From assembly GCA_043228905.1 (NCBI GenBank), contig JBHGNT010000078.1, positions 41,503-105,502 on the forward strand: 64,000 bases of DNA. The letters run 5' to 3'. Position numbers and translations under genes: made by a program. Below the pieces are notes generated by a model. It did no database searches, had not been told where the DNA came from, and saw only the letters and a program-made list of their open reading frames with translations. This DNA comes from Azolla caroliniana (lineage: Eukaryota; Plantae; Polypodiophyta). The first letter of the stretch is position 1, and each line of letters begins with the position of its first letter. Of the stretch, positions 10,301 to 64,000 are shown piece after piece.

Positions 10301-10881
10301 CTCTTCTCCAATACCTCCTCAAATTTGCTAATTTCTTCATGTCTCTCGACCTGTGTTTCAAAATTATAATTTTTCAATTCTATATCATAACTAGCGTTCT
10401 TAGCTTCGATTCGCATGTTTGAACACAAAAATCCGATATCACACGACCCAGGTATGAGCATTTTAATTTACTAACGCGCTCTTCTCAACTCCTTCCTAAA
10501 ATTTGCAAATTTCTTCATGTCTCTGGACCTGAGTTTCAAAGTCTTGATTTTTTAATTCTATATCATAACTAGCATTGTTAGGTACGATTCGCATTTTTGA
10601 ACACAAAAATGCGATATCCCAGAAGCCAGGTATGAACATTTTAATTTACTCACGGGGTCTTCTCCACTACCTTCTCAAATTTGCTAATTTCTTCATGTCT
10701 CTCGACCTGAGCTTCAAAATCTTGATTTTTCAATTCTATGTCATAGCTAGTGTTGTTAGCTTTGATTCGCATGTTTGAACACAAAAATCCAATATCAGAC
10801 GAGCCAAGTATGAACATTTTAATTTACTAATGCGCTCTTCTCCAATACCTCCTCAAATTTGCTAATTTCTTCACATCTCTC

Positions 10882-17400: not shown

Positions 17401-17499
17401 GAACACAAACATCCGATATCACACGAGCCAGGTATGAACATTTTAAATTACTGACGGGGTCTTCTAAACTCCTTCCTCAAATTTGCTAATTTCCTCATG

Positions 17500-22940: not shown

Positions 22941-23389
22941 CTCGACCTGTGTTTGAAAATTATAATTTTTCAATTCCATATCATAACTAGCGTTCTTAGC
23001 TTCGATTCGCATGTTTGAACACAAAAATCCGATATCACACGAGCCAGGTATGAACATTTTAATTTACTGACGCGCTCTTCTCAACTCCTTCCTCAAATTT
23101 GCTAATTTCTTCATGTCTCTGGACCTGAGTTTCAAATTCTTGATTTTCCCATTCCATATCATAGCTAGTGTTGTTAGCTTCGATTCGCATGTTTGAACAC
23201 AAAAATCCGATATCCCACAAGCCAGGCATGAACATTTTAATTTACTCACGGGGTCTTCTCCATTACCTTCTCAAATTTGCTAATTTCTTCATGTCTTTCG
23301 ACCTGAGTTTCAAAATCTTGATTTTTTAATTCCATATCATAGCTAGTGTTGTTAGCTTCCATTCGCATGTTTGAACACAAAAATCCAAT

Positions 23390-38300: not shown

Positions 38301-41300
38301 ATCATAGCTAGCGTTTTAGCTTCGATTCGCATGTTTGAACACAAACATCCGATATCACACGAGCCAGGTATGAACATTTTAAATTACTGACGGGGTCTTC
38401 TAAACTCCTTCCTCAAATTTGCTAATTTCCTCATGTCTCTAGACCTGAGTTTCAAAATTATATTTTTTAATTCTATATCATAGCTAGCGTTGTTAGCTTC
38501 GATTCGCATGTTTGAACACAAAAATCCGATATCACACGAGCCAGGTATGAACATTTTAATTTACTAACGCGCTCTTCTCCAATACCTCCTCAAATTTGCT
38601 AATTTCTTCATGTCTCTCGACCTGTGTTTGAAAATTATAATTTTTCAATTCTATATCATAACTAGCGTTCTTAGCTTCGATTCGCATGTTTGAACACAAA
38701 AATCCGATATCACACGACCCAGGTATGAGCATTTTAATTTACTAACGCGCTCTTCTCAACTCCTTCCTAAAATTTGCAAATTTCTTCATGTCTCTGGACC
38801 TGAGTTTCAAAGTCTTGATTTTTTAATTCTATATCATAACTAGCGTTGTTAGGTACGATTCGCATTTTTGAACACAAAAATGCGATATCCCAGAAGCCAG
38901 GTATGAACATTTTAATTTACTCACGGGGTCTTCTCCACTACCTTCTAAAATTTGCTAATTTGTTCATGTCTCTCGACCTGAGCTTCAAAATCTTGATTTT
39001 TCAATTCTATGTCATAGCTAGTGTTGTTAGCTTTGATTCGCATGTTTGAACACAAAAATCCAATATCAGACGAGCCAAGTATGAACATTTTAATTTACTA
39101 ATGCGCTCTTCTCCAATACCTCCTCAAATTTGCTAATTTCTTCACATCTCTCGACCTGTGTTTCAAAATTATAGTTTTTCAATTCTATATCATAACTACC
39201 GTTCTTAGCTTCGATTCGCATGTTTGAACACAAAAATCCGATATCACACGAGCCAGGTATGAACACTTTAATTTATTGACGCGCTCTTCTCAACTCCTTC
39301 CTCAAATTTGCTAATCTCTTCATGTCTCTGGACCTGAGTTTCAAATTCTTGATTTTCTAATTCCATAACATAGCTAGTGTTGTTAGCTTCGATTCGCATG
39401 TTTGAACACAAAAATCCGATATCCCACAAGCCAGGCATGAACATTTTAATTTACTCACGGGGTCTCCTCCACTACCTTCTCAAATTTGCTAATTTCTTCA
39501 TGTCATATCATATCTAGTGTTGTTAGCTTCGATTCGCATGTTTGAACACAAAAATCCAATATCACACGAGCCAAGTATGAACATTTTAATTTACTAACGC
39601 CCTATTCTCCAATACCTCCTAAAAGTTGCTAATTTCTTCATGTCTCTCGACCTGTGTTTGAAAATTATAATTTTTCAATTCCATATCATAACTAGCGTTC
39701 TTAGCTTCGATTCGCATGTTTGAACACAAAAATCCGATATCACACGAGCCAGGTATGAACATTTTAATTTACTGACGCGCTCTTCTCAACTCCTTCCTCA
39801 AATTTGCTAATTTCTTCATGTCTCTGGACCTGAGTTTCAAATTCTTGATTTTCCCATTCCATATCATAGCTAGTGTTGTTAGCTTCGATTCGCATGTTTG
39901 AACACAAAAATCCGATATCCCACAAGCCAGGCATGAACATTTTAATTTACTCACGGGGTCTTCTCCACTACCTTCTCAAATTTGCTAATTTCTTCATGTC
40001 TTTCGACCTGAGTTTCAAAATCTTGATTTTTTAATTCCATATCATAGCTAGTGTTGTTAGCTTCCATTCGCATGTTTGAACACAAAAATCCAATATCACA
40101 CGAGCCAGGCTCTTCTCTAATACCTCCTCAAATTTGCTAATTTCTTCATGTCTCTCGACCTGTGTTTGAAAATTATAATTTTCCAATTCTATATCATAAC
40201 TAGCGTTCTTAGCTTCGATTCGCAAGTTTGAACACAAAAATCTCATATCACACGAGCCAGGTATGAGCATTTTAATTTTCTGACGCCCTCTTCTCAACTC
40301 CTTCCTCAAATTTGCTAATTTCTTCATATCTCTGGACCTGAGTTTCAAAGTCTTGATTTTTTAATTCTATATCATAGCTAGCGTTGTTAGCTTCGATTCG
40401 CATGTTTGAACACAAAAATCCAATATCACACGAGCCAGGTATGAACATTTTAATTTACTAACGCGCTCTTCTCCAATACCTCCTCAAATTTGCTAATTTC
40501 TTCATGTCTCTCGACCTGTGTTTCAAAATTATAATTTTTCAATTCTATATCATAACTAGCGTTCTTAGCTTCGATTCGCATGTTTGAACACAAAAATCCG
40601 ATATCACACGACCCAGGTATGAGCATTTTAATTTACTAATGCGCTCTTCTCAACTCCTTCCTGTCTCTGGACCTGAGTTTCAAAGTCTTGATTTTTTAAT
40701 TCCATATCATAGCTAGTGTTGTTAGCTTCGATTCGCATGTTTGAACATAAAAATCTGATATCACACGAGCCAGGTATGAACATTTTAATTTACTCACGGG
40801 GTTTTCTCAACTCCTTCCTCAAGATTGCTAATTTCTTCATGTCTGTCGACCTGAGTTTCAAAATTATAATTTTTCAATTCAATATCATAGCTAGCGTTGC
40901 TAGCTTCGATTCTCATGTTTGAACACAAAAATCTGATATCACACGAGCCAGCTATTAACATTTTATTTTACTCACCGGGTCTTCTCACCTCCTTCCTCAT
41001 CTTTGCTAATTTGTTAATATCTCTCGACCTGAGTCTCGAAATCTTGATTTTTTAATTCTATATCATAGCTAGCGTTCTTAGCTTCGATTCACATTTTTGA
41101 ACTGAGTTTCAAAATCTTGATTTTTTAATTGCATATCATAGCTAGCGTTGTTAGCTTCGATTCGCATGTTTGAACAAAAAAATCCAATATCACACGAGCC
41201 AGGTATGAACATTTTAATTTACTCACGGGGTCTTCTCAACTCCTTCCTCAAATTTACTAATTTCTTCATATCTCTCGACCTGTGTTTCAAAATCTTAATT

Positions 41301-44219
41301 TTCTAATTCCATATCATAGCTAGCGTTGCTAGCTTCGATTCTCATGTTTGAACACAAAAATCCGATATCACACGAGCTAGATATGAACATTTTAATTTAC
41401 ACACCGGGTATTCTCAACGCCCTCCTCAAGTTTGCTAATTTCCTCATGTCTCTCGATCTGAGTTTCAAAATCTTGATTTTTGAATTCTATATCATAGCTA
41501 GCGTTTTAGCTTCGATTCGCATGTTTGAACACAAACATCCGATATCACACGAGCCAGGTATGAACATTTTAAATTACTGACGGGGTCTTCTAAACTCCTT
41601 CCTCAAATTTGCTAATTTCCTCATGTCTCTAGACCTGAGTTTCAAAATTATATTTTTTAATTCTATATCATAGCTAGCGTTGTTAACTTCGATTCGCATG
41701 TTTGAACACAAAAATCCGATATCACACGAGCCAGGTATGACCATTTTAATTTACTAACGCGCTCTTCTCCAATACCTCCTCAAATTTGCTAATTTCTTCA
41801 TGTCTCTCGACCTGTGTTTGAAAATTATAATTTTTCAATTCTATATCATAACTAGCGTTCTTAGCTTCGATTCGCATGTTTGAACACAAAAATCCGATAT
41901 CACACGACCCAGGTATGAGCATTTTAATTTACTAACGCGCTCTTCTCAACTCCTTCCTAAAATTTGCAAATTTCTTCATGTCTCTGGACCTGAGTTTCAA
42001 AGTCTTGATTTTTTAATTCTATATCATAACTAGCGTTGTTAGGTACGATTCGCATTTTTGAACACAAAAATGCGATATCCCAGAAGCAAGGTATGAACAT
42101 TTTAATTTACTCACGAGGTCTTCTCCACTACCTTCTAAAATTTGCTAATTTGTTCATGTCTCTCGACCTGAGCTTCAAAATCTTGATTTTTCAATTCTAT
42201 GTCATAGCTAGTGTTGTTAGCTTTGATTCGCATGTTTGAACACAAAAATCCAATATCAGACGAGCCAAGTATGAACATTTTAATTTACTAATGCGCTCTT
42301 CTCCAATACCTCCTCAAATTTGCTAATTTCTTCACATCTCTCGACCTGTGTTTCAAAATTATAGTTTTTCAATTCTATATCATAACTACCGTTCTTAGCT
42401 TCGATTCGCATGTTTGAACACAAAAATCCGATATCACACGAGCCAGGTATGAACACTTTAATTTATTGACGCGCTCTTCTCAACTCCTTCCTCAAATTTG
42501 CTAATTTCTTCATGTCTCTGGACCTGAGTTTCAAATTCTTGATTTTCTAATTCCATAACATAGCTAGTGTTGTTAGCTTCGATTCGCATGTTTGAACACA
42601 AAAATCCGATATCCCACAAGCCAGGCATGAACATTTTAATTTACTCACGGGGTCTCCTCCACTACCTTCTCAAATTTGCTAATTTCTTCATGTCATATCA
42701 TATCTAGTGTTGTTAGCTTCGATTCGCATGTTTGAACACAAAAATCCAATATCACACGAGCCAAGTATGAACATTTTAATTTACTAACGCCCTATTCTCC
42801 AATACCTCCTAAAAGTTGCTAATTTCTTCATGTCTCTCGACCTGTGTTTGAAAATTATAATTTTTCAATTCCATATCATAACTAGCGTTCTTAGCTTCGA
42901 TTCGCATGTTTGAACACAAAAATCCGATATCACACGAGCCAGGTATGAACATTTTAATTTACTGACGCGCTCTTCTCAACTCCTTCCTCAAATTTGCTAA
43001 TTTCTTCATGTCTCTGGACCTGAGTTTCAAATTCTTGATTTTCCCATTCCATATCATAGCTAGTGTTGTTAGCTTCGATTCGCATGTTTGAACACAAAAA
43101 TCCGATATCCCACAAGCCAGGCATGAACATTTTAATTTACTCACGGGGTCTTCTCCACTACCTTCTCAAATTTGCTAATTTCTTCATGTCTTTCGACCTG
43201 AGTTTCAAAATCTTGATTTTTTAATTCCATATCATAGCTAGTGTTGTTAGCTTCCATTCGCATGTTTGAACACAAAAATCCAATATCACACGAGCCAGGC
43301 TCTTCTCTAATACCTCCTCAAATTTGCTAATTTCTTCATGTCTCTCGACCTTTGTTTGAAAATTATAATTTTTCAATTCTATATCATAACTAGCGTTCTT
43401 AGCTTCGATTCGCAAGTTTGAACACAAAAATCTCATATCACACGAGCCAGGTATGAGCATTTTAATTTTCTGACGCCCTCTTCTCAACTCCTTCCTCAAA
43501 TTTGCTAATTTCTTCATATCTCTGGACCTGAGTTTCAAAGTCTTGATTTTTTAATTCTATATCATAGCTAGCGTTGTTAGCTTCGATTCGCATGTTTGAA
43601 CACAAAAATCCAATATCACACGAGCCAGGTATGAACATTTTAATTTACTAACGCGCTCTTCTCCAATACCTCCTCAAATTTGCTAATTTCTTCATGTCTC
43701 TCGACCTGTGTTTTTCAAAATTATAATTTTTCAATTCTATATCATAACTAGCGTTCTTAGCTTCGATTCCCATGTTTGAACACAAAAATCCGATATCACA
43801 CGACCCAGGTATGAGCATTTTAATTTACTAATGCGCTCTTCTCAACTCCTTCCTGTCTCTGGACCTGAGTTTCAAAGTCTTGATTTTTTAATTCCATATC
43901 ATAGCTAGTGTTGTTAGCTTCGATTCGCATGTTTGAACATAAAAATCTGATATCACACGAGCCAGGTATGAACATTTTAATTTACTCACGGGGTTTTCTC
44001 AACTCCTTCCTCAAGATTGCTAATTTCTTCATGTCTGTCGACCTGAGTTTCAAAATTATAATTTTTCAATTCAATATCATAGCTAGCGTTGCTAACTTCG
44101 ATTCTCATGTTTGAACACAAAAATCTGATATCACACGAGCCAGCTATTAACATTTTATTTTACTCACCGGGTCTTCTCACCTCCTTCCTCATCTTTGCTA
44201 ATTTGTTAATATCTCTCGA

Positions 44220-47200
44220 CCTGAGTCTCACATTTTTGAACATAAAAATCCGATATCCCACAAGCCAGGCACGAACATTTTAATTTACTCACGGGGTCTT
44301 CTCCACTACCTTCTCAAATTTGCTAATTTGTTTATGTCTCTCGACTTGAGTTTCAAAATCTTGATTTTTTAATTCCATATCATAGCTAGTGTTGTTAGCT
44401 TCGATTCTCATGTTTGCACATAAGAATCTGATATCACACGAGCCAGGTATGAACATTTACTCACGGCGTTTCTCAACTCCTTCCTCAAGATTTCTAATTT
44501 CTTCATGTCTGTCGACCTGTGTTTCAAAATTATAATATCACAAAATCTAATATCACAAAAGCCAGGTATAAACATATTAATTTACTCACGGGGTCTTCTC
44601 CACTACCTGTTCAAATTTGCTAACTTCGTCAAGTCTCTAGACCGGTGTTTCAATTCAATATCATAGCTAGCGTTGTTAGCTTCGATTCGCATGTTTGAAC
44701 ACAAACATCCGATATCACACGAGCCAGGTATGAACATTTTAAATGATTGACGGGGTCTTCTCCACTACCTCCTCAAATTTGCTAATTTCTTCATGCCTCT
44801 CCACCTGAGTTTCAAAATCTTGATTTTTTAATTCTATATCATAGCTAGCGTTGTTAGCTTCGATTCGCATGTTTGAACACAAAAATCCGATATCACACGA
44901 GCCAGGTATGAATATTTTAATTTACTCACGGGGTCTTCTCAACTCGTTCCTCAAATATGCAAATATCTTCATGTCTCTCGACCTGTGTTTCAAAATCTTG
45001 ATTTTTTAATTCCATATCATAGCTAGTATTCTTAGCTTCGATTCGCATGTTTGAACACAAAAATCCGATATAAATCGAGCCAGCTATGAACATTTTAATT
45101 TCCGAAGAGGGTCTTCTCCACCTGCTCGTCAAATTTGCTAATCTCTTCATGTCTCTCGACCTGAGTTTGAAAATGTTAATTTTTTAATTCCATACCATAG
45201 CTAGCATTGTTAGCTTCGATTCGCATATTTGAACACAAAAATCCGATATCACACCAGCCAGGTATGAACATTATAATTTACTCACGGGGTCTTCTCCACT
45301 ACCTTCCCAATTTTGCTAATTTCTTCATGTCTCTCGACCTGAGTTTCAAAATCTTGATTTTCTAATTCCATATCATAGCTAGTATTCTTAGATTCGATTC
45401 GCATGTTTGAACACAAAAATCCGATATCACACGAGCCAGGTATGAACATTTTAATTTACTCACGGGGTCTTCTCCACTACCTTCTCAAATTTGCTAATTT
45501 GTTTATGTCTCTCGACTTGAGTTTCAAAATCTTGATTTTTTAATTCCATATCATAGCTAGTGTTGTTAGCTACGATTCTCATGTTTGCACATAAAAATCT
45601 GATATCACACGAGCCAGGTATGAACATTTACTCACGGGGTTTCTCAACTCCTTCCTCAAGATTGCTAATTTCTTCATGTCTGTCGACCTGTGTTTCAAAA
45701 TTATAATATCACAAAATCTGATATCACAAAAGCCAGGTATAAACATATTAATTTACTCACGGGGTCTTCTCCACTACCTGTTCAAATTTGCTAACTTCGT
45801 CAAGTCTCTAGACCGGTGTTTCAATTCAATATCATAGCTAGCGTTGTTAGCTTCGATTCGCATGTTTGAACACAAACATCCGATATCACACGAGCCAGGT
45901 ATGAACATTTTAAATGATTGACGGGGTCTTCTAAACTCCTTCCTCAAATTTGCTAATTTCCTCATGTCTCTCGATCTGAGTTTCAAAATCTTGATTTTTT
46001 AATTCTATATCATAGCTAGCGTTGTTAGCTTCGATTCGCATGTTTGAACACAAAAATCCGATATCACACGAGCCAGGTATGAATATTTTAATTTACTCAC
46101 GGGGTCTTCTCAACTCGTTCCTCAAATATGCAAATATCTTCATGTCTCTCGACCTGTGTTTCAAAATCTTGATTTTTTAATTCCATATCATAGCTAGTAT
46201 TCTTAGCTTCGATTCGCATGTTTGGACACAAAAATCCGATATAAATCGAGCCAGCTATGAACATTTTAATTTCCGAAGAGGGTCTTCTCCACTTCCTCGT
46301 CAAATTTGCTAATTTCTTCATGTCTCTCGACCTGAGTTTGAAAATGTTAATTTTTTAATTCCATACCATAGCTAGCATTGTTAGCTTCGATTCGCATATT
46401 TGAACACAAAAATCCGATATCACACCAGCCAGGTATGAACATTATAATTTACTCACGGGGTCTTCTCCACTACCTTCCCAATTTTGCTAATTTCTTCATG
46501 TCTCTCGACCTGAGTTTCAAAATCTTGATTTTTTAATTCCATATCATAGCTAGTATTCTTAGATTCGATTCGCATGTTTGAACACAAAAATCCGATATCA
46601 CACGAGCCAGGTATGAACATTTTAATTTACTCACTAGGTCTTCTCCACTACCTTCTCCAATTTGCTAATTTCTTCATGTCTCTCAACCTGAGTTTCAAAA
46701 TCTTGATTTTTTAATTCGATATCCTAGCTAGCGTTGGTACCTTCGATTCCCATGTTTGAACACAAAAATACGATATCACACGAGCCAGGTATGAATATTT
46801 TCATTTACTCACCGGGTCTTCTCCACTACCTCCTCAAATTTGCTAATTTCTTGATGTCTCTTGAACTCAGTTTCAAAATCTTGATTTTTTAATTGCATAT
46901 CATAGCTAGCGTTGTTAGCTTCGATTCGCATGTTTGAACAAAAAAATCCAATATCACACGAGCCAGGTATGAACATTTTAATTTACTCACGGGGTCTTCT
47001 CAACTCCTTCCTCAAATTTGCTAATTTCTTCATATCTCTCGACCTGTGTTTCAAAATCTTAATTTTCTAATTCCATATCATAGCTAGCGTTGCTAGCTTC
47101 GATTCTCATGTTTGAACACAAAAATCCGATATCACACGAGCTAGATATGAACATTTTAATTTACACACCGGGTATTCTCAACGCCTTCCTCAAGTTTGCT

Positions 47201-49800
47201 AATTTTCTCATGTCTCTCGATCTGAGTTTGAAAATCTTGATTTTTGAATTCTATATCATAGCTAGCGTTTTAGCTTCGATTCGCATGTTTGAACACAAAC
47301 ATCCGATATCACACGAGCCAGGTATGAACATTTTAAATTACTGACGGGGTCTTCTAAACTCCTTCGTCAAATTTGCTAATTTCCTCATGTCTCTCGACCT
47401 GAGTTTGAAAATGTTAATTTTTTAATTCCATACCATAGCTAGCATTGTTAGCTTCGATTCGCATATTTGAACACAAAAATCCGATATCACACCAGCCAGG
47501 TATGAACATTATAATTTACTCACAGGGTCTTCTCCACTACCTTCCCAATTTCGCTAATTTCTTCATGTCTCTCGACCTGAGTTTCAAAATCTTGATTTTT
47601 TAATTCCATATCATAGCTAGTATTCTTAGATTCGATTCGCATGTTTGAACACAAAAATCCGATATCACACGAGCCAGGTATGAACATTTTAATTTACTCA
47701 CTAGGTCTTCTCCACTACCTTCTCCAATTTGCTAATTTCTTCATGTCTCTCAACCTGAGTTTCAAAATCTTGATTTTTTAATTCGATATCCTAGCTAGCG
47801 TTGGTACCTTCGATTCCCATGTTTGAACACAAAAATACGATATCACACGAGCCAGGTATGAATATTTTCATTTACTCACCGGGTCTTCTCCACTACCTCC
47901 TCAAATTTGCTAATTTCTTGATGTCTCTTGAACTCAGTTTCAAAATTTTGATTTTTTAATTGCATATCATAGCTAGCGTTGTTAGCTTCGATTCGCATGT
48001 TTGAACAAAAAAATCCAATATCACACGAGCCAGGTATGAACATTTTAATTTACTCACGGGGTCTTCTCAACTCCTTCCTCAAATTTGCTAATTTCTTCAT
48101 ATCTCTCGACCTGTGTTTCAAAATCTTAATTTTCTAATTCCATATCATAGCTAGCGTTGCTAGCTTCGATTCTCATGTTTGAACACAAAAATCCGATATC
48201 ACACGAGCTAGATATGAACATTTTAATTTACACACCGGGTATTCTCAACACCTTCCTCAAGTTTGCTAATTTTCTCATGTCTCTCGATCTGAGTTTGAAA
48301 ATCTTGATTTTTGAATTCTATATCATAGCTAGCGTTTTAGCTTCGATTCGCATGTTTGAACACAAACATCCGATATCACACGAGCCAGGTATGAACATTT
48401 TAAATTACTGACGGGGTCTTCTAAACCTGTTCCTCAAATTTGCTAATTTCCTCATGTCTCTAGACCTGAGTTTCAAAATTATATTTTTTAATTCTATATC
48501 ATAGCTAGCGTTGTTAGCTTCGATTCGCATGTTTGAACACAAAAATCCGATATCACACGAGCCAGGTATGAACATTTTAATTTACTCACGGGGTCTTCTC
48601 AACTCGTTCCTCAAATATGCAAATATCTTCATGTCTCTCGACCTGTGTTTCAAAATCTTGATTTTTTAATTCCATATCATAGCTAGTATTCTTAGCTTCT
48701 ATTCGCATGTTTGAACACAAAAATCCGATATCACAAAAGCCAGGTATAAACATATTAATTTACTCACGGGATCTTCTCCACAACCTATTCAAATTTGCTA
48801 ACTTCGTCAAGTCTCTAGACCAGTGTTTCAATTCAATATCATAGCTAGCGTTGTTAGCTTCGATTCGCATGTTTGAACACAAACATCCGATATCACACGA
48901 GCCAGGTATGAACATTTTAAATTACTGACGGGGTCTTCTAAACTCCTTCCTCAAATTTGCTAATTTCCTCATGTCTCTCGACCTGAGTTTCGAAATCTTG
49001 ATTTTTTAATTCTATATCATAGCTAGCGTTGTTAGCTTCGATTCGCATGTTTGAACACAAAAATCCGATATCACACGAGCCAGGTATGAACATTTTAATT
49101 TACTCACGGGGTCTTCACAACTCCTTCCTCAAATATGCAAATATCTTCATGTCTCTCGACCTGTGTTTCAAAATCTTGATTTTTTAATTCCATATCATAG
49201 CTAGTATTCTTAGCTTCGATTCGCATGTTTGAACACAAAAATCCGATATCACACGAGCCAGCTATGAACATTTTAATTTACTCACTAGGTCTTCTCCACT
49301 ACCTTCTCAAATTTGCTAATTTCTTCATGTCTCTCGACCTGAGTTTCAAAATCTTGATTTTTTAATTCGATATCATAGGTAGCGTTGGTACCTTCGATTC
49401 CCATGTTTGAACACAAAAATACGATATCACACGAGCCAGGTATGAACATTTTAATTTACTCACGGGGTCTTCTCAACTCCCTCCTCAAATTTGATAATTT
49501 CTTCATGTCTCTCGACCTGAGTTTGACAATGTTGATTTTTTGATTCCATATCATAGCTAGCATTGTTAGCTTCGATTCGCATATTTGAATACAAAAATCC
49601 GATATCACAAAAGCCAGATATAAACATATTAATTTACTCACGGGGTCTTCTCCACTACCTATTCAAATTTGCTAACTTCGTCAAGTCTCTAGACCGTTGT
49701 TTCAATTCAATATCATAGCTAGCGTTGTTAGCTTCGATTCGCATGTTTGAACACAAACATCCGATATTACACGAGCCAGGTATGAACATTTTAATTTACT
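44220..49800. repeat. Right-flank layer with the same monomer variants as the left flank, plus local 1,171-bp and 1,067-bp duplications
   Basis: GAAGAGGGTC at ~45104 and ~46275 matches ~3097 and ~13198. AAAAGCCAG(G/A)TATAAACATATT occurs on both flanks. Offsets are 44926/46097 (1,171) and 47090/48157 (1,067, six monomers). Confidence 0.85.
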
Positions 49801-52800
49801 AACGCGCTCTTCTCGAATACCTCCTCAAATTTGCTAATTTCTTCATGTCTCTCGACCTGTGTTTCAAAATTATAATTTTTCAATTCTATATCATAACTAG
49901 GGTTCTTAGCTTCGATTCGCATGTTTGAACACAAAAATCCGATATCACACGAGCCAGGTATGAACATTTTAATTTACTGATTTGCTCTTCTCAACTCCTT
50001 CCTCAAATTTGCTAATTTCTTCATGTCCCTCGACCTGAGTTTCAAAGTCTTGATTTTTTAATTCTATATCATAGCTACCGTTGTTAGCTTCAATTCCCAT
50101 TTTTGAACACAAAAATCCGATATCCCACAAACCAGGCATGAACATTTTAATTTACTCACGGGGTCTTCTCCAATACCTTCTCAAATTTGCTAATTTCTTC
50201 ATGTCTCTCGACCTGTGTTTCAAAATTATAATTTTTCAATTCTATAAGATAACTAGCGTTCTTAGCTTCGATTCGCATGTTTGAACACAGAAATCCGATA
50301 TCACACTAGCCAAGTATGAGCATTTTAATTTACTGACGCGCTCTTCTCAACTCCTTCCTCAAATTTGCTAATTTCTTCCTGTCTTTGGACCTGAGTTTCA
50401 AATTTTTGATTTTCTAATTCCATATCATACCTAGTGCTGTTAGCTTCGATTCGCATGTTCGAACATAAAAATCTGATATCACACGAGCCAGATATGAACA
50501 TTTTAATTTACTCACGGGGTTTTCTTAACTCCTTCCTCAAATTTGCTAATTTCTTCATGTCTCTCGACCTGAGTTTGAAAATCTTAATTTTTTAATTCCA
50601 TATTAAAGCTACCGTTGTTAGCTTCAATTCGAATATTTGCACACAAAAATCCGATATCACACCAGCCAGGTATGAACATTTTAATTTACTCACGGGGTCT
50701 TCTCCACTACCTCCTCAAATTTGCTAATTTCGTCATGGCTCTAGACTCGTGTTTCAAAATCTTCATTTTTGAATTCCATATTATAGCTAGCGTTGTTCGC
50801 TTCGATTCACATGTTTGAACACAAATATCCGATATCACACGAGCTAGGTATGAACATTTTAATTTACTGACGCGCCCGGTATGAACATTTTAATTTACTC
50901 ACGGGGTCTTCTCAACTCCGTCCTCAAATTTGCTAATTTTTCATGTCTCTCGACCTGAGTTTCAAAATCTTGATTTTTTAATCCAATATCATAGCTTCCA
51001 ATGTTAGCTTCGATTCGAATGTTTGAACACAAAAATCCGATATCACTTGAGCCAGGTATGAACATTTTAATTTACTCACGGGGTCTTCGCAACTCCTTCC
51101 TCAAATTTGTTAATTTCTTCATTTCTCACGACCTGTGTTTCGAAATCTTGATTTTTTAATTCCATAATATAGATAGCGTGGTTAGCTTCGATTCGCATGT
51201 TCGAACACAAAAATCCGATATCAATCGAGCCAGCTATGAACATATTAATTTACGAATGGGGTCTTCTCCACTACCTCCTCAAATTTGCTAATTTCTTCAT
51301 GTCTCTCGACCTGAGTTTGAAAATCATAATTTTTTAATTCCAGATCATAGCTAGCATTGTTAGCTTCGATTCGCATATTCGACACAAAAATCCGATATCA
51401 CACCAGCCAGGTATGAACATTATAATTTACTCACGGGGTCTTCTCCACTACCTCCTCAAATTTGCTAATTTCTTCATCCCTCTCGACCTGTATTTCCAAA
51501 TCTTAATTTTTTAATTTCATATCATAGCTAGCGTTGTTAGCTTCGATTCACATGTTTGAACACAAAAATCCGATATCACACGAGCCACGTATGAACATTT
51601 TAATTTACTGACGGGGTCTTCTCAACTCTTTCCTCAAATTTGCAAATTTCATCATGTGTCTCGACCTGAGTTTCAAGATCTTGATTTTTTAATCCAATAT
51701 CATAGCTAGCGTTGTTAGCTTCGATTCGCAGGTTTGAACACAGAAATCCGATATCACACGAGCCAGGTATGAACATTTTAATTTAGTCACGGGGTCTTCT
51801 CAACTCCTTCCTCAAATTTGCTAATTTCTTCATGTCTCTCGACCTGTGTTTCAAAATCTTGATTTTTTAATTCCATATCATAGCTAGCGTGGTTAGCTTC
51901 GATTCACATGTTCGAACACATAAATCCGATATCAATCGAGCCATCTCTGAACATTATAATTTACTCACGGGGTCTTCTCCACTACCTCCTCAAATTTGCT
52001 AATTTCTTCATGTCTCTCGACCTGAGTTTGAAAATCTTAATTTTTTAATTCCATATCATAGCTAGCGTTGTTAGCTTCGATTCGCAAATTTGAACACAAA
52101 AATCCGATATCACACCAGCCAGGTATGAACATTATAATTTACTCACGGGGTCTTCTCCACTACCTCCTCAAATTTGCTAATTTCTTGATGTCTGTCGACC
52201 AGTATTTCAAAATCTTGATTTTTTAATTCCATATCATAGCTAGCGTTGTTAGCTTCGATTCGCATGTTTGAACACAAAAATCCGATATCACACACGAGCC
52301 ACGTATGAACATTTTAATTTACTCACGGGGTCTTCTCAACTCCTTCATCAAATCTGCAAATTTCATCATGTGTCTCGACCTGAGTTTCAAGATCTTGATT
52401 TTTTAATCCAATATCACATGAACCAGGTATGAACATTTTAATTTACTCACGGGGTCTTCTCAACTCCTTCCTCAAATTTTTCTAATTTCTTCCTGTCTCT
52501 CGATCTGAGTTTCCAAATCTTCCATTTTTAATTCCATAGTATAGCTAGCGTTGTTAGCTTCGATTGGCAGGTTTGAACACAAAAATCCGATATCACACGA
52601 GCCAGGTCTGAACATTTTAATTTACTCACGGCGTCTTATCAACTCCTTCCTCAAATTTGCTAATATCTTCATGTCTCTCGACCTGTGATTCAAAATTTTG
52701 ATTTTTTAATTCCATATCATAGCTAGCGTGGTTCGCATGTTCGAACACATAAATCCGATATCAATCAAGCCAGCTATGAACATTTTAATTTACGAACGGG

Positions 52801-55800
52801 GTCTTCTCCACTACCTTCTCAAATTTGCTAATTTCTTCATGTCTCTCGACCTGAGTTTGAAAATCTGAATTTTTTAATTCCATAGCATAGCTAGCGTTGT
52901 TAGCTTCGATTCGCATATTTGAACACAAAAATCCGATTTCCCACAAGCCAGGTATGAACATTATAATTTACTCACGGGGTCTTCTCCACTACCTCCTCAA
53001 ATTTGCTAATATTTTCATGTCTCTCGACCTGTATTTCAAAATCTTGATTTTTTAATTTCATATCATAGCTAGCGTTGTTAGCTTCGATTCGCATGTTTGA
53101 ACACAAAAATCCGATATCACACGAGCCACGTATGAACATTTTAATTTACTCACGGGGTCTTCTCAACTCCTTCCTCAAATTTGCTAATTTCTTCATGTCT
53201 CTCGACCTCAGTTTCAAAATCTTCCAATTTTAATGCCAAAGTATAGCTAGCATTGTTAGCTTCGATTCGCATATTTGAACATAAAAATCCGATATGACAC
53301 CAGCCAGGTATGAACATTTTCATTTACTCACCGGGTCTTCTCCACTACCTCCTCAAATTTGCTAATTTCTTGATGTCTCTCGAACTGAGTTTCAAAATCT
53401 TGATTTTTTAATTGCATATCATAGCTAGCGTTGTTAGCTTCGATTCGCATGTTTGAACAAAAAAATCCAATATCACACGAGCCAGGTATGAACATTTTAA
53501 TTTACTCACGGGGTCTTCTCAACTCCTTCCTCAAATTTGCTACTTTCTTCATATCTCTCGACCTGTGTTTCAAAATCTTGATTTTTTAATTCCATATCAT
53601 AGCTAGCGTGGTTAGCTTCGATTCGCATGTTCGAACACATAAATCTGATATCAATCAAGCCATCTATGAACATTTTAATTTACGAACGGGGTCTTCTTCA
53701 CTACCTCCTCAACTTTGCTAATTTCTTCATGTCTCTCGACCTGAGTTTGAAAATCTTAATTTTCTAATTCCATATCATAGCTAGCGTTGCTAGCTTCGAT
53801 TCTCATGTTTGAACAAAAAAATCCGATATCACACGAGCTAGATATGAACATTTTAATTTACACACCGGGTATTCTCAACGCCTTCCTCAAGTTTGCTAAT
53901 TTCCTCATGTCTCTCGATTTGAGTTTCAAAATCTTGATTTTTGAATTCTATATCATAGCTAGCATTTTAGCTTCGATTCGCATTTTTGAACACAAAAATC
54001 CGATTTCCCACAAGCCAGGTATGAACATTTTAATTTACTCACGGGGTGTTCTCAACTCCTTCCTCAAGTTTGCAAACTTCATCATGTGTCTCGACCTGAG
54101 TTTCAAGATCTTGATTTTTTAATCCAATATCATAGCTAGCATTGTTAGCTTCGATTCGCAGGTTTGAACACAGAAATCCGATATCACACGAACCAGGTAT
54201 GAACATTTTAATTTACTCACGAGGTCTTCTCAACTCCTTCCTTAAATTTGCTAATTTCTTCATGTCTCTGGACCTGAGTTTCAAATTCTTGATTTTTTAA
54301 TTCCATATCATAGCTAGCATTGTTAGCTTCAATTCCCATTTTTGAACACAAAAATCCGATTTCCCACAGGCTAGGTATGAACATTTTAATTTACTCACGG
54401 GGTCTTCTCCACTACCTTCTCAAATTTGCTAATTTCTTCATGTCTGTCGACCTGAGTTTCAAAATCTTGATATTTCAATTCAATATCATAGCTAGCGTTG
54501 CTAGCTTCGATTCTCATGTTTGAACTTCAAAATTCGATATCACACGAGCCAGCTATGAACATTTTAATTTACTCACCGGGTCTTCTCAACTCCATCCTCA
54601 TCTTTGCTAATTTCTTCATGTCTGTCAACCTGAGTTTCAAAATCTTGATTTGTTAATTCCATATCATAGCTAGCATTGTTAGCTTCAATTCCCATTTTTG
54701 AACACAAAAATCCGATTTCCCACAGGCCAGGTTTGAACATTTTAATTTACTCACGGGGTCTTCTCCACTACCTTCTCAAATTTGCTAATTTCTTCATGTC
54801 TGTCGACCTGAGTTTCAAAATCTTGATATTTTGATTCCACATCATAGCTAGTGTTGTTAGCTTCGATTCGCATGTTTGAACACAAAAATCCAATATCACA
54901 CGAGCCAGGAATGAACATTTTAATTTACTAACGCGCTCTTTTCCAATACCTCCTGAAATTTGCTAATTTCTTCATTTCTCTCGACTTGTGTTTTAAAATT
55001 ATAATTTTTCAAGTCCATATCATAACTAGCGTTCTTAGCTTCGATTCGCATGTTTGAACACAAAAATCCGATATAACACGAGCCAGGTATGAACATTTTA
55101 ATTTACTGACGCGCTCTTCTCAACTCCTTCCTCAAATTTGCTAATTTCTTCATGTGTCTGGACCTGAGTTTCAAATTCTTGATTTTCTCATTCCATATCA
55201 TACCTAGTGTTGTTAGCTTCGATTCGCATGTTTGAACATAAAAGTCTGATATCACACGAGCCAGATATGAACATTTTAATTTACTCACGGGGTTTTCTCA
55301 ACTCCTTTCTCAAGTTTGCAAATTTCTTCATGTCTCTGGACGTGAGTTTCAAAGTCTTCATTTTTAAATTCTATATGATAGCTAGCGTTGTTATCTTCGA
55401 TTCGCATCTTTTAATACGAAAATCCGATATCACACGTGCCACGTATGAACATTTTAATTTACTCACGGGGTCTTCTCCACTACCTCCTCCAATTTGCTAA
55501 TTTCATCATGTCTCTAGACCTGTATTTCAAAACTATAATTTTTCAATTCAATATCATAGCTAGCGTTGCTAGCTTCGATTCTCATGTTTGAACACAAAAA
55601 TTCGATATCACACGAGCCAGCTATGAACATTTTAATTTACTCACCGGGTCTTCTCAACTCCATCCTCATCTTTGCTAATTTCTTCATGTCTCTCAACCTG
55701 AGTTTCAAAATCTTGATTTGTTAATTCCATATCATAGCTAGCATTGTTAGCTTCAATTCCCATTTTTGAACACAAAAATCCGATTTCCCACAGGCCAGGT

Positions 55801-58800
55801 ATGAACATTTTAATTTACTCACGGGGTCTTCTCCACTACCTTCTCAAATTTGCTAATTTCTTCATGTCTCTCGACCTGAGTTTCAAAATCTTGATTTTCT
55901 AATTCCATATCATAGCTAGCGTTGTTAGCTTCCATTCGAATTTTTGAACACAAAAATCCGATATCCCACAAGCCAGGTATGAACATTTTAATTTACTCAC
56001 GGGGTCTTCTCCACTACATTCTCAAATTTGCTAATTTCTTCATGTCTCTCGACCTGAGTTTCAAAATCTGGATTTTCTAATTCCATATCATAGCTAGCGT
56101 TGTTAGCTTCAATTCGAATTTTTGAACACAAAAATCCGATATCCCACAAGCCAGGTATGAACATTTTAATTTACTCACGGGGTCTTCTCCACTACATTCT
56201 CAAATTTGCTAATTTCTTCATGTCTCTCGACCTGAGTTTCAAAATCTTGATTTTTTAATTCCATATCATAGCTAGTGTTGTTAGCTTCCATTCGCATGTT
56301 TGAACACAAAAATCCAATATCACACGAGCCAGGTATGAACATTTTAATTTACTAACGCGCTATTCTCCAATACCTCCTAAAATTTGCTAATTTCTTCATT
56401 TCTCTAGACCTGTGTTTTAAAATTATAATTTTTCAATTCCATATCACAACTAGCGTTCTTAGCTTCGATTCGCATGTTTGAACACAAAAAGCCGATATCA
56501 CACGAGCCAGGTATGAACATTTTAATTTACTGACACGCTCTTCTCAACTCCTTCCTCAAATTTGCTAATTTCTTCATGTCTTTGGACCTGAGTTTCAAAT
56601 TCTTGATTTTCTAATTCCATATCATAGCTTGTGTTGTTAGCTTCGATTCGCATGTTTGAACATAAAAATCTGATATCACACGAGCCAGGTATGAACATTT
56701 TAATTTACTCACGAGGTTTTCTCAACTCCTTCCTCAAGTTTGCTAATTTCTTCATGTCTGTCGACCTGAGTTTCAAAACCTTGATTTTTTAATTCTATAT
56801 GATAGCTAGTGTTGTTAGCTTCGATTCCCATGTTTGAACACGAAAATCCGATATCATACGTGCCAGGTATGAACATTTTAATTTACTCACGGGGTCCTCT
56901 CCACTACCTCCTCGAATTTGCTAATTTCGTCATGTCTCTAGACCTGTATTTCAAAACTATAACATTTTAATTCAATATCATAGCTAGCGTTGCTAGATTC
57001 GATTCTCATGTTTGAACACAAAAATCCGATATCACACGAGCTAGATATGAACATTTTAATTTACACACCGGGTATTCTCAACGCCTTCCTCAAGTTTGCT
57101 AATTTCCTCATGTCTCTCGATCTGAGTTTCAAAATCTTCATTTTTTAATTCTATATCATAGCTAGCGTTTTAGCTTCGATTCGCATTTTTGAACACAATA
57201 ATCCGATTTCCCACAAGCCAGGTATGAACATTTTAATTTACTCACGGGGTCTTCTCCACTACCTTTTCAAATTTGCTAATTTCTTCATGTCTGTCGACCT
57301 GAGTTTCAAAATCTTGATATTTTAATTCCATATCATAGCTAGTGTTGTTAGCTTCCATTCGCATGTTTGAACACAAAAATTCAAGATCACACGAGCCAGG
57401 TATGAACATTTTAATTTACTAACGCGCTATTCTCCAATACCTCCTAAAATTTGCTAATTTCTTCATGTCTCTTGACCTGTGTTTTAAAATTATAATTTTT
57501 GAATTCCATATCATAACTAGCGTTCTTAGCTTCGATTCGCATGTTTGAACACAAAAATCCGATATCACACGAGCCAGGTATGAACATTTTAATTTACTGA
57601 CGCGCTCTTCTCAATTCCTTCCTCAAATTTGCTAATTTCTTCATGTCTGTCGACCTGAGTTTCAAAACCTTGGTTTTTTAATTATATATGATAGCTAGCG
57701 TTGTTAGCTTCGATTCACATTTTTGAACACAGAAATCCGATTTCCCACAAGCCAGGTATGAACATTTTAATTTACTCACGGGGCTTCTTTACTAACTTCT
57801 CAAATTTGCTAATTTCTTCATGTCTCTCGACCTGAGTTTCAAAATCTGGATTTTCTAATTCCATATCATAGCTAGCGTTGTTAGCTTCAATTCGAATTTT
57901 TGAACACAAAAATCCGATATCCCACAAGCCAGGTATGAACATTTTAATTTACTCACGGGGTCTTCTCCACTACATTCTCAAATTTGCTAATTTCTTCATG
58001 TCTCTCGACCTCAGTTTCAAAATCTTGATTTTTTAATTCCATATCATAGCTAGTGTTGTTAGCTTCCATTCGCATGTTTGAACACAAAAATCCAATATCA
58101 CACGATCCAGGTATGAACATTTTAATTTACTAACGCGCTATTCTCCACTACCTCCTCCAATTTGCTAATTTCATCATGTCTCTAGAACTGTATTTCAAAA
58201 CTATAATTTTTCAATTCCATATCATAACTAGCGTTCTTAGCTTCGATTCGCATGTTTGAACACAAAAATCCGATATCACACGAGCGAGGTATGAACATTT
58301 TAATTTACTGACGCGCTCTTCTCAACTCCTTCCTCAAATTTGCTAATTTCTTCATGTCTGTCGACCTGAGTTTCAAAACCTTGATTTTTTAATTCTATAT
58401 GATAGCTAGCGTTGTTATCTTCGATTCGCATGTTTGAACACGAAAATCCGATATCACACGTGGCAGGTATGAACATTTTAATTTACTCACGGGGTCTTCT
58501 CCACTACCTCCTCCAATTTGCTAATTTCATCATGTCTCTAGACCTGTATTTCAAAACTATAATTTTTCAATTCAATATCATAGCTAGCGTTGCTAGCTTC
58601 GATTCTCATGTTTGAACACAAAAATCCGATATCCCACAAGCCAGGTATGAACATTTTAATTTACTCACGGGGTCTTCTCCACTACCTTCTCAAATTTGCT
58701 CATTTCTTCATGTCTCTCGACCTGAGTTTCAAAATCTTGATTTTCTAGTTCCATATCATAGCTAGCGTTGTTAGCTTCAATTCGAATTTTTGAACACAAA

Positions 58801-60400
58801 AATCTGATTTCCCACAGGCCAGGTATGAACATTTTAATTTACTCCCGGGGTCTTCTCCACTACCTTCTCAAATTTGCTCATTTCTTCATGTCTCTCGACC
58901 TAAGTTTCAAAATCTTGATTTTCTAGTTCCATATCATAGCTAGCGTTGTTAGCTTCAATTCGAATTTTTGAACACAAAAATCCGATATCCCACAAGCCAG
59001 GTATGAACATTTTAATTTACTCACGGGGTCTTCTCCACTACCTTCTCAAATTTGCCAATTTCTTCATGTCTCTCGACCTGAGTTTCAAAATCTTGATTTT
59101 TTAATTCCATATCATAGCTAGTGTTGTCAGCTTCCATTCGCATGTTTGAACACAAAAATCCAATATCACACGAGCCAGGTATGAACATTTTAATTTACTA
59201 ACGCGCTATTCTCCAATACCTACTAAAATTTGCTAATTTCTTCATGTCTCTCGACCTGTGCTTTAAAATTATAATTTTTCAAGTCCATATCATAACTAGC
59301 GTTCTTAGCTTCGATTCGCATGTTTGAACACAAAAATCCAATATAACACGAGCCAGGTAACAACATTTTAATTTACTGAGGCGCTCTTCTCAACTCCTTC
59401 CTCAAATTTGCTAATTTCTTCATGTCTTTGGACCTGAGTTTCAAATTCTTGATTTTCTAATTCCATATCATAGCTAGTGTTGTTAGCTTCGATTCGCATG
59501 TTTGAACACAAAAATCCGATATCCCACAAGCAGGCATGAACATTTTAATTTACTCACGGGGTCTTCTCCACTACCTTCTCAAATTTGCTAATTTCTTCAT
59601 GTCTATCGACCTGAGTTTCAAAATCTTGATTTTCTAATTCCATATCATAGCTAGCGTTGTTAGCTTCAATTCACATTTTTTACCACAAAAATCCGATATC
59701 CCACAAGCCAGGTATGAAGATTTTAATTTACTCACGGGGTCTTCTCCACTGCCTTCTCAAATTTGCTAATTTCTTCATGTCTCTTGACCTGAGTGTCAAA
59801 ATCTTGATTTTCTAATTCCATATCATAGCTAGTGTTGTTAGCTTCCATTCGCATGTTTGAACACAAAAATCCAATATCACACGAGCCAGGTATGAAGATT
59901 TTAATTTACTAACGCGCTATTCTCCAATACCTCCTAAAATTTGCTAATTTCTTCATGTCTCTCGACCTGTGTTTTTAAATTATAATTTTTGAATTCCATA
60001 TCCTAACTAGCGTTCTTAGCTTCGATTCGCATGTTTGAATACAAAAATGCGATATCACACGAGCCGGGTATGAACATTTTAATTTACTGACGCGCTCTTC
60101 TCAACTCCTTCCTCAAATTTGCTAATTTCTTCATGTCTCTGGACCTGAGTTTCCAAATCTTGATTTTTTAATTCCATATCATAGCTAGTGTTGTTAGCTT
60201 CCATTCGCATGTTTGAACACAAAAATCCAATATCACACGAGCCAAGTATGAACATTTTAATTTACTAACGCGCTATTCTCCACTACCTCCTCCAATATGC
60301 TAATTTCATCAGGTCTCTAGACTTGTATTTCAAAACTATAATTTTTCAATTCCATATCATAACTAGCGTTCTTAGCTTCGATTCGCATGTTTGAACACAA
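49800..60400. repeat. More diverged satellite layer, largely without long exact HORs
   Basis: Many private substitutions and small indels (for example ~50875, 52291, 52411, 52731). I saw no kilobase-scale exact repeat by eye. Confidence 0.75.
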
Positions 60401-60599
60401 AAATCCGATATCACACGAGCGAGGTATGAACATTTTAGTTTACTGACGCGCTCTTATCAACTCCTTCCTCAAATTTGTTAATTTCTTCATGTGTTTGGAC
60501 CTGAGTTTCAAATTCTTGATTTTCTAATTCCATATCATAGCTAGTGTTGTTAGCTTCGATTCGCATGTTTGAACACAAAAATCCGATATCCCACAAGCC

Positions 60600-60683
60600 A
60601 GGGTTTAGGGTTTTCATGTCTCTCGACCTGTGTTTCAAAATTATAATTTTTCAATTCTATATCATAACTAGCGTTTAGGGTTT
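60600..60683 (+). repeat. Short Arabidopsis-type telomere motifs (TTTAGGG), copy 1
   Basis: AGGGTTTAGGGTTT at 60600-60613 and GTTTAGGGTTT at 60673-60683. Both are absent from the satellite consensus. Confidence 0.8.
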
Positions 60684-61428
60684 TAATTTACTCAAAAATC
60701 CGATATCCCACAAGCCAGGTATGAACATTTTAATTTACTCACGGGGTCTTCTCCACTACCTTCTCAAATTTGCTAATTTCTTCATGTCTATCGACCTGAG
60801 TTTCAAAATCTTGATTTTCTAATTCCATATCATCGCTAGCGTTGTTAGCTTCAATTCGCATTTTTGACCACAAAAATCCGATATCCCACAAGCCAGGTAT
60901 GAAGATTTTAATTTACTCACGGGGTCTTCTCCACTACCTTCTCAAATTTGCTAATTTCTTCATGTCTCTTGACCTGAGTTTCAAAATCTTGATTTTTTAA
61001 TTCCATATCATAGCTAGTGTTGTTAGATTCCATTCGCATGTTTGAACACAAAAATCCAATATCACACGAGCCAGGTATGAACATTTTAATTTACTAACGC
61101 GCTCTTTTCCAATACCTCCTATAATTTGCTAATTTCTTCATTTCTCTCAACTTTTGTTTTAAAATTATAATTTTTGAATTCCATATCATAACTAGCGTTC
61201 TTAGCTTCGATTCGCATGTTTGAACACAAAAATCCGATATAACACGAGCCAGGTATGAACATTTTAATTTACTTAGGCGCTCTTCTCAACTCCTTCCTCA
61301 AATTTGCTAATTTCTTCACGTCTTTGGACCTGAGTTTCAAATTCTTGATTTTCTAATTCCATATCATAGCTAGTGTTGTTAGCTTCTATTCGCATGTTTG
61401 AACACAAAAATCCGATATCCCACAAGCC

Positions 61429-61512
61429 AGGGTTTAGGGTTTTCATGTCTCTCGACCTGTGTTTCAAAATTATAATTTTTCAATTCTATATCATAACTAG
61501 CGTTTAGGGTTT
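61429..61512 (+). repeat. Short telomere motifs, copy 2
   Basis: Identical to 60600-60683 at +829 bp. Confidence 0.8.
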
Positions 61513-62257
61513 TAATTTACTCAAAAATCCGATATCCCACAAGCCAGGTATGAACATTTTAATTTACTCACGGGGTCTTCTCCACTACCTTCTCAAATTT
61601 GCTAATTTCTTCATGTCTATCGACCTGAGTTTCAAAATCTTGATTTTCTAATTCCATATCATCGCTAGCGTTGTTAGCTTCAATTCGCATTTTTGACCAC
61701 AAAAATCCGATATCCCACAAGCCAGGTATGAAGATTTTAATTTACTCACGGGGTCTTCTCCACTACCTTCTCAAATTTGCTAATTTCTTCATGTCTCTTG
61801 ACCTGAGTTTCAAAATCTTGATTTTTTAATTCCATATCATAGCTAGTGTTGTTAGATTCCATTCGCATGTTTGAACACAAAAATCCAATATCACACGAGC
61901 CAGGTATGAACATTTTAATTTACTAACGCGCTCTTTTCCAATACCTCCTATAATTTGCTAATTTCTTCATTTCTCTCAACTTTTGTTTTAAAATTATAAT
62001 TTTTGAATTCCATATCATAACTAGCGTTCTTAGCTTCGATTCGCATGTTTGAACACAAACATCCGATATAACACGAGCCAGGTATGAACATTTTAATTTA
62101 CTTAGGCGCTCTTCTCAACTCCTTCCTCAAATTTGCTAATTTCTTCACGTCTTTGGACCTGAGTTTCAAATTCTTGATTTTCTAATTCCATATCATAGCT
62201 AGTGTTGTTAGCTTCGATTCGCATGTTTGAACACAAAAATCCGATATCCCACAAGCC

Positions 62258-62341
62258 AGGGTTTAGGGTTTTCATGTCTCTCGACCTGTGTTTCAAAATT
62301 ATAATTTTTCAATTCTATATCATAACTAGCGTTTAGGGTTT
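62258..62341 (+). repeat. Short telomere motifs, copy 3
   Basis: Identical to 60600-60683 at +1,658 bp. Confidence 0.8.
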
Positions 62342-62969
62342 TAATTTACTCAAAAATCCGATATCCCACAAGCCAGGTATGAACATTTTAATTTACTCAC
62401 GGGGTCTTCTCCACTACCTTCTCAAATTTGCTAATTTCTTCATGTCTATCGACCTGAGTTTCAAAATCTTGATTTTCTAATTCCATATCATCGCTAGCGT
62501 TGTTAGCTTCAATTCGCATTTTTGACCACAAAAATCCGATATCCCACAAGCCAGGTATGAAGATTTTAATTTACTCACGGGGTCTTCTCCACTACCTTCT
62601 CAAATTTGCTAATTTCTTCATGTCTCTTGACCTGAGTTTCAAAATCTTGATTTTTTAATTCCATATCATAGCTAGTGTTGTTAGATTCCATTCGCATGTT
62701 TGAACACAAAAATCCAATATCACACGAGCCAGGTATGAACATTTTAATTTACTAACGCGCTCTTTTCCAATACCTCCTATAATTTGCTAATTTCTTCATT
62801 TCTCTCAACTTTTGTTTTAAAATTATAATTTTCGAATTCCATATCATAACTAGCGTTCTTAGCTTCGATTCGCATGTTTGAACACAAAAACCCGATATCA
62901 CACGAGCCAGGTATGAACATTCTAATTTACTCACGCGCTCTTCTCAACTCCTTCCTCAAATTTGCTAGT

Positions 62970-64000
62970 TTCTTCATGTCTCTGGACCTGAGTTTCAAAG
63001 TCTTGATTTTTTAATTCTATATCATAGCTAGCGTTGTTAGCTTCGATTCGCATTTTTGAACACAAAAATGCGATATCCCACAAGCCAGGTATGAACATTT
63101 TTATTTACTCACGGGGTCTTCTGAACTCCTTCCTCAAATTTGCTAATTTCTTCATGTCTCTCGATCTGTGTTTGAAAATCTTGATTTTTTAATTTCATAT
63201 CATAGCTAGCATTGTTAGCTTCGATTCGCATGTTTGAACACAAAAATCCAATGTCACACGAGCCAGGTATGAACATTTTAATTTACTAACCTGCTCTTCT
63301 CCAATACCTCCTCAAATTTGCTAATTTCTTCATATCTCTCGACCTGAGTTTCAAAATTATAGTTTTTCAATTCTATAATCATAACTAGCGTTCTTAGCTT
63401 CGATTCGCATGTTTGAACACAAAAATCCAATATCACACGAGCCAGGTATGAACATTTTAATTTACTAACGCGCTCTTCTCCAATACCTCCTAAAATTTGC
63501 TAATTTCTTCATGTCTCTGGACCTGAGTTTCAAAGTCTTGATTTTTTAATTCTATATCATAGCTAGCGTTGTTAGCTTCGATTCGCATTATTGAACACAA
63601 AAATGGGATATCCCACAAGCCAGGTATGAACATTTTTATTTACTCACGGGGTCTTCTGAACTCCTTCCTCAATTTTGCTAATTTCTTTATGTCTCTCGAC
63701 CTGTGTTTGAAAATCTTGATTTTTTAATTTCATATCATAGCTAGCATCGTTAGCTTCGATTCGCATGTTTGAACAAAAAAATCCAATATCACACGAGCCA
63801 GGTATGAACATTTTAATTTACTAACCTGCTCTTCTCCAATACCTCCTGAAATTTCCTAATTTCTTCATATCTCTCGACCTGAGTTTCAAAATTATAGTTT
63901 TTCAATTCTATATCATAACTAGCGTTCTTAGCTTCGATTCGCATGTTTGAACACAAAAATCCAATATCACACGAGCCCGGTATGAACATTTTAATTTACT
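62970..64000. repeat. 535-bp trimer duplication (three-monomer HOR), running off the window end
   Basis: Private variants recur at a 535-bp offset: CTGAACTCC at 63121/63656, CTAACCTGCTC at ~63286/63821, and TTTTTATTTAC. Confidence 0.8.

Follow-up and report, generated by a model that had tools for sequence, protein, structure and literature searches.

A young patchwork scar with telomere-register junctions, amplified as a small higher-order repeat in a 178-bp satellite array of the fern Azolla caroliniana

TTTAGGG is the Arabidopsis-type plant telomere repeat and the presumed chromosome-end motif of Azolla caroliniana. It has been reported for all bryophytes analysed (PMC10856949); for ferns, no telomere motif is given in the accessible parts of PMC8287931 and PMC9498494 or in the abstract of PMC13622026. 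The closest described scars are the primate and rodent ITS of Nergadze et al. 2007 (PMC2246262), perfect repeats inserted at a break junction and counted in that study from four units upwards. The 3' end at such mammalian break sites is 3 nt in register in 33-40% of cases, versus less than 2% expected; the flanks display deletion, addition or duplication, and the choice between telomerase and fragment capture was left open in that work. In plants, de novo telomere addition has been described in Arabidopsis (10.64898/2026.07.24.740321), including a telomerase-type capping of broken centromeric satellite during centromere fission, and in maize and wheat (PMC12094224), healed wheat breaks showing 2-4 nt of homology as cited in the latter source. 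The CenTel mosaic satellites of Arabidopsis ITR-1R and ITR-4L carry telomere motifs in the 178-bp satellite beside truncated monomers, in units of approximately 500-600 bp with telomere islands of about 180 bp that spread as higher-order repeats over blocks of 69-484 kb; their authors attribute the first motif to point mutation and propose telomerase healing, BIR or MMEJ for the multi-motif units (10.64898/2026.05.10.723265). The kind of telomere scar considered here is thus known from mammals and has so far mostly been proposed for plant satellites: among the open-access papers listed we found neither a base-level case of such a scar in a plant satellite nor a 178-bp satellite in a fern.

The DNA stretch analysed here (the window, 64,000 nt) consists of one satellite array. 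A consensus was built from 288 full monomers and the whole window was then segmented by a profile parse, which returned 141 segments, all on the + strand, with a longest filler of 14 nt (Table 1). Towards its 3' end, the array includes a tandem tract whose 829-bp unit is made of a 117-bp patchwork and four local monomers, forming the series a, a', b, c, and the three patchwork copies are letter-for-letter identical at offsets +829 and +1658. The monomer step from c to a, which holds the patchwork, is uninterrupted at 59331-59509. The ancestral state lacks the telomere tracts described below, both in the 288-monomer consensus and in the paralogues. Directly 3' of the tract, several monomers at 62885-64000 have their closest neighbours in the 1-40 kb block and not at 52-62 kb, which places the scar close to a repeat-subfamily boundary.

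Table 1. Coordinates of the satellite array, the amplified tract and the components of the patchwork in the window.
Feature	Position	Strand	Remarks
178-bp satellite array	1..64000	+	single orientation, without non-satellite block
Example of candidate donor unit	40501..40806	+	exact 63-bp piece; monomer with GGGGTTTT variant 298 bp further 3'
Nearest uninterrupted paralogous monomer pair	59331..59685	+	empty-site analogue
Young tandem tract, period 829 bp	60494..62888	+	2.9 units; 3 single-base differences
Patchwork, first copy (117 bp)	60576-60692	+	
Patchwork, second copy (117 bp)	61405..61521	+	
Patchwork, third copy (117 bp)	62234..62350	+	
Left break end, monomer positions 1-27	60576..60602	+	AGG end in telomere-repeat register; copies at +829 and +1658
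Junction 1, perfect telomere-register tract of 14 nt (2 units)	60600..60613	+	10-nt filler at 60603-60612
Satellite piece of 63 bp, positions 89-151	60613..60675	+	3' end is the only near-telomere 7-mer of the satellite
Junction 2, telomere-register tract of 11 nt	60673..60683	+	5-nt filler at 60676-60680
Satellite piece of 12 bp, positions 36-47	60681..60692	+	junction 3 to position 1 via 2-nt CA overlap
Right flank, second copy of positions 1-27	60693..60719	+	possible target duplication, not diagnostic

Each patchwork copy runs through monomer positions 1-27, a 10-nt filler, positions 89-151, a 5-nt filler and positions 36-47, and then returns to position 1, so that every base of the 117 bp is assigned to a satellite piece or to the telomere register. 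The three joins are all out of monomer register and display the end processing of end joining (deletion, addition, duplication), with pieces that have exact donors and overlaps of 1-4 nt. Both telomere tracts start on 3 nt of satellite already in register, AGG at junction 1 and GTT at junction 2, and both are continued by a fourth, non-telomeric T; junction 3 is devoid of telomere motif. The two tracts share a 12-nt core, and their 15-mers are one mismatch apart, so that independence of the two motifs is not assured. Positions 145-151 (TAGCGTT) have their 3' end at junction 2; this entry site matches the telomere repeat at 6 of 7 bases and, with all 178 positions checked on both strands, is the sole consensus 7-mer that differs from the telomere 7-mer by no more than one base. 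With this single near-telomere site against a shuffle mean of 3.4, the idea of a generally telomere-rich satellite was rejected. The 27-bp repeat flanking the filler was similarly discarded as target-site-duplication proof of a single staggered break, being found at 32 other places; the same layout would result if the local repeat of four monomers had undergone two independent deletions, against which the distant donor of the 63-bp piece (see below) argues.

These results bear out most of the original prediction, which had described a 117-bp patchwork of non-adjacent satellite fragments amplified three times with an 829-bp period (the copies are identical in sequence, their number being that of the assembly), same-strand TTTAGGG in register at two of the three junctions, and satellite ends already in telomere phase. 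Its proposal that each tract is left through a T-run shared with the next fragment stands in part: a hop over a TTTT overlap was probably used, but junction 1 shares just one T with the consensus monomer.

As also predicted, TTTAGGG occurs nowhere else in the window: the six matches are all on the + strand and inside the patchwork copies (60604, 60674 and their counterparts at +829 and +1658), and the - strand of the 64,000-nt window has none. They represent two sites in three copies, so that position and phase, not count, carry the signal. The raw count of six is at chance level (shuffle mean of 4.17, with 27 of 100 shuffles reaching six) and was dropped as evidence, being non-significant and tested against the wrong null. 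The signal comes from the junctions: among the 38 junction types in the window (13 indels of 1-2 nt and 25 larger ones), a telomere-register tract longer than 6 nt is present in only two, at 14 and 11 nt, and none of the other 36 comes near them. Outside the copies, none of the 15,458 distinct 30-mers contains a telomere-register tract longer than 7 nt. When all primitive units of 5-8 nt were fitted to both junctions, the plant 7-mer came out best (14 + 11 nt), followed by an 8-mer (11 + 12 nt), the vertebrate 6-mer reaching 8 + 8; five other telomere motifs gave a poorer fit than TTTAGGG. A single monomer at 49898 displays a 7-nt telomere-register word created by point mutation, C-to-G at position 148, resembling the single-substitution motifs of Arabidopsis CEN178.

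The donors of the patchwork are unevenly distributed in the array. The 63-bp piece is matched exactly by 13 monomers at 249-40501 and by none of the 99 monomers at 41001-60500; the 48 nearest monomers differ from it at no fewer than 4 bases and the 8 downstream monomers at no fewer than 3. Its template was therefore probably a more distant stretch of the array, 20 kb or more off if inside the window; a donor beyond the window end is possible. In 8 of the 13 exact donors (units 11734-40501), the GGGGTTTT variant is found 298 bp away, compared with 36 of 295 monomers overall, these eight units being copies of one repeat and counting as one independent observation; the 12-bp piece lies directly 5' of the variant in seven of the eight. 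The fillers themselves have no such source. The original prediction had raised rebuilding of the motif from a satellite variant as a check, and no one-piece satellite donor was found for either filler when both strands were considered: the 10-nt filler has no satellite variant within 2 mismatches on either strand, and the longest exact satellite pieces across the fillers are of 5-8 nt. The GGGGTTTT variant is the caveat that stands. If it supplied the rest, junction 1 would require a single A and junction 2 the dinucleotide TA from outside the satellite, with 5 nt left unexplained at junction 1 and 2 nt at junction 2, or 1 nt were the second junction a copy of the first. A multi-step rebuild from GGGGTTTT thus needs one or two untemplated bases, for which naive odds are too generous, simulation giving at most 42 per million.

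In this simulation, patchworks were grown from satellite sequence alone over a million trials per setting, allowing self-copying and untemplated bases biased towards A, with parameters of our choice. Tracts of at least 14 nt arose 3, 4, 7 and 8 times per million when the entire upstream array could be copied, 3 and 11 times when copying was confined to the donor unit, and 20, 42 and 30 times in the worst case, in which every trial additionally began from the AGG end seen here. A lone 7-mer appeared in 0.4-2.8% of the trials, and one motif alone would consequently mean little. The locus was picked from a very large scan, and the corresponding figure of about 25 x 1e-5 per window is small, without being nil over many windows.

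A chance look-alike of this type would form at junction 1 if the AGG end switched to the GGGGTTTT variant, acquired an A without template and copied the variant a second time (a 7-bp duplication), and at junction 2 by copying of junction 1 or by duplicating the 7 bp at positions 145-151 with a single base change. The presence of the variant in the candidate donor unit speaks for it, together with the satellite-only patchworks at 5993-6094 and 36642-36665, the one existing C-to-G change at position 148, the chance-level raw 7-mer count and the fact that the simulation does yield the junction-1 string. It is made improbable by the rarity of such outcomes (3-42 per million simulated trials), by its requirement for hops without microhomology and for exactly three G and three T twice, and by the failure of all 36 other junction types to approach such tracts. 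An artefact of assembly or sequencing has been considered in view of the near-identity of the copies (three differences in 2.4 kb), and was confronted with contigs from public runs, of which five among 20 listed were compared (X1, X2, X3, X4 and X6), the small-share runs X10-X20 being unused. Junction 1 was retrieved in X4 (69-nt contig with no other letter, depth 2.77) and X6 (69-nt contig with one other letter, depth 3.35), and junctions 2-3 in exact contigs of X4 (110 nt, depth 12.9) and X2 (77 nt, depth 56.1). The sequencing support sought by the original prediction thus comes from three of the five runs and from two studies, X4 and X6 belonging to one and X2 to the other, either of which may be the assembly's own source; only X4 over junction 2 reaches 31 letters on each side, the remaining contigs reaching 29-30. 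On the other side, X1, the run with the most shared words, has neither junction 1 nor junction 2 in its contigs, X3 shows zero depth across junction 2 and no junction-1 contig among the matches listed, and none of the compared contigs extends across the full patchwork or across all three copies. With exact or near-exact junction contigs and units that differ at three bases, an artefact is very improbable: the junctions are real DNA, whereas the three-copy number rests on the assembly and could on its own still be artefactual.

Two observations were made along with this comparison. X2 covers junctions 2-3 at depth 56 without a junction-1 contig and X6 does the reverse at depth 3; the contrast was set aside as evidence for the order of events, although raw reads carrying junction 2 but not junction 1 would mean that the tracts were added separately. 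In X3, from organism B, 0.42 of the sampled words are present, indicating that the satellite is common to a second organism label.

The scar is accordingly real, well resolved, very young and telomere-templated, and it was amplified as a small higher-order repeat. Its best-supported explanation, in agreement with the original prediction, is that a broken satellite end was extended on a telomere template, rejoined and amplified; taking telomerase and telomeric DNA jointly as the template, we regard this extension as highly probable. The two templates are indistinguishable from sequence. We lean, with some reserve, towards telomerase as the enzyme that extended the end. Both primers would fit within the Arabidopsis telomerase template CTAAACCCT (PMC6765143), with extension to the template boundary, one translocation and a partial second round; both tracts stop mid-template, which is a point against telomerase, and no telomerase-RNA flank was found in the fillers, all 117 bp being assigned. 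Alternatively, a template-hopping polymerase may have copied the tracts from telomeric DNA that was already there, be it at a telomere, in an interstitial block, on a free fragment or on a satellite end healed earlier, telomerase being inactive at this break. This would suit a scar that is a template-hopping patchwork anyway, and DNA priming likewise needs in-register microhomology; fragment capture is moreover the standing alternative for mammalian ITS (PMC2246262) and was shown at a yeast site (PMC12709191), nearly half of the apparent additions at one telomere-like site in yeast being recombination according to the same source. Against it, the remaining pieces all come from this array and from one strand, the window offers no telomeric donor, the tracts are perfect and very short, and no longer telomere run lies behind either junction among the contigs listed for X1-X4 and X6, which cannot prove absence. 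We therefore regard it as a serious though rather unlikely source.

Under the telomerase reading, the 3' end at monomer position 27 (AGG) would have primed in register and gained about 1.5 repeats. The new GGGTTT end would then have annealed back into the array, plausibly on a GGGGTTTT variant monomer, and 63 bp would have been copied from a monomer type at least 20 kb distant. Release at position 151, the one near-telomere site, would have been followed by the second short tract, made in a second telomerase round or copied from the first tract; two further microhomology hops (TTTT and CA) would have closed the break, short template hops having probably rejoined the extended end instead of its being capped. 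For the second tract, re-entry of both GGGTTT ends on GGGGTTTT (6-nt match) and copying of junction 2 from junction 1, where 5 of 6 bases would match at the primer, appear evenly balanced. A later tandem triplication of 829 bp would have completed the process; the tandem structure is observed, and its mechanism is what we infer. More tentatively, telomerase and a template-hopping polymerase may have alternated twice on one end, the 829-bp unit then being a newborn telomere-satellite mosaic. Such an alternation would be favoured because the satellite offers both priming sites (AGG and the 7-mer at 145-151) and a landing site for GGGTTT. Support for the mechanism comes from one locus.

Compared with the ITS of Nergadze et al. 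(PMC2246262), the scar likewise has perfect repeats at a break junction, a 3' end 3 nt in register, an empty ancestral site and processed ends. It differs by its length of 2 and approximately 1.5 units, below the four-unit threshold of that study, by carrying a pair of tracts, spaced 70 bp, within a single multi-template patchwork, and by its plant 7-mer, its location within a satellite and its tandem amplification. It is distinct from TERC-ITS, defined by insertion of a telomerase-RNA piece beyond the template, all 117 bp being otherwise assigned. Like CenTel, it is a mosaic of satellite and telomere motif beside a truncated monomer, amplified in situ in three tandem copies, and it corresponds to the multi-motif step for which the CenTel authors propose telomerase healing, BIR or MMEJ. 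Unlike CenTel, its motifs are junction fillers totalling 25 nt in an 829-bp unit, with three copies over 2.4 kb, far from the roughly 180-bp islands and the blocks of tens to hundreds of kb, in a satellite that resembles CEN178 in its 178-bp length. It shares sharp repeat addition on a few nt of homology with the de novo additions of Arabidopsis (10.64898/2026.07.24.740321), maize and wheat (PMC12094224), which in these accounts end in kilobase caps, whereas the extension here would have been aborted and the end rejoined. Microhomologies of 1-4 nt and templated pieces after repeated attempts also characterise plant polymerase-theta end joining (PMC12153051). The patchwork has both microhomology and templated pieces, the enzyme itself being unreadable from a scar; the portions of that account available to us do not mention telomere repeats, and the nearest exact 63-bp donor in the window is here 20 kb or more away. 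The telo-box model of Gaspin et al. 2010 (PMC3022908) similarly has telomerase add roughly one repeat, non-processively, to a free 3' end before strand invasion and error-prone repair; it concerns gene promoters and relies on motif distribution, while the empty-site consensus gives base-level junctions here. Endonuclease-less Penelope elements were considered as an origin of the repeats and rejected, since the scar contains no sequence of such an element.

The array displays other irregularities. Out-of-register monomers (152, 157, 140 and 73 bp) were amplified 6-16 times in window positions 1-45800. The array thereby tolerates and spreads broken monomers, unlike the Arabidopsis mutation-accumulation lines, in which 56 of 56 large indels kept the 178-bp register in the part of the study consulted (10.1101/2025.06.02.657473). 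The patchwork at 5993-6094 results from four short back-jumps among positions 110-155 and has satellite pieces only, without telomere motif; that at 36642-36665 is a single-copy junction starting in a GGGGTTT variant, with a 9-nt filler resembling positions 119-127. A complex unit (6-bp deletion, 5-nt filler and further deletion) is found in four distant copies at 2452-2645, 12553-12747, 44459-44652 and 45630-45823.

As it stands, the finding amounts to a two-unit scar of a known kind at a single small locus. For the large internal telomere blocks of plants, the CenTel authors argue an origin from centromeric satellite, in which point mutation could not place several motifs in one unit. This scar shows two motifs entering one satellite unit, base by base, and then amplified with it, a view afforded by the hundreds of empty-site controls that the satellite supplies. 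If telomerase and a template-hopping polymerase did alternate on the broken end, the 829-bp unit would capture at single-base resolution, in a distant plant lineage, the step for which point mutation proved insufficient in the CenTel model.
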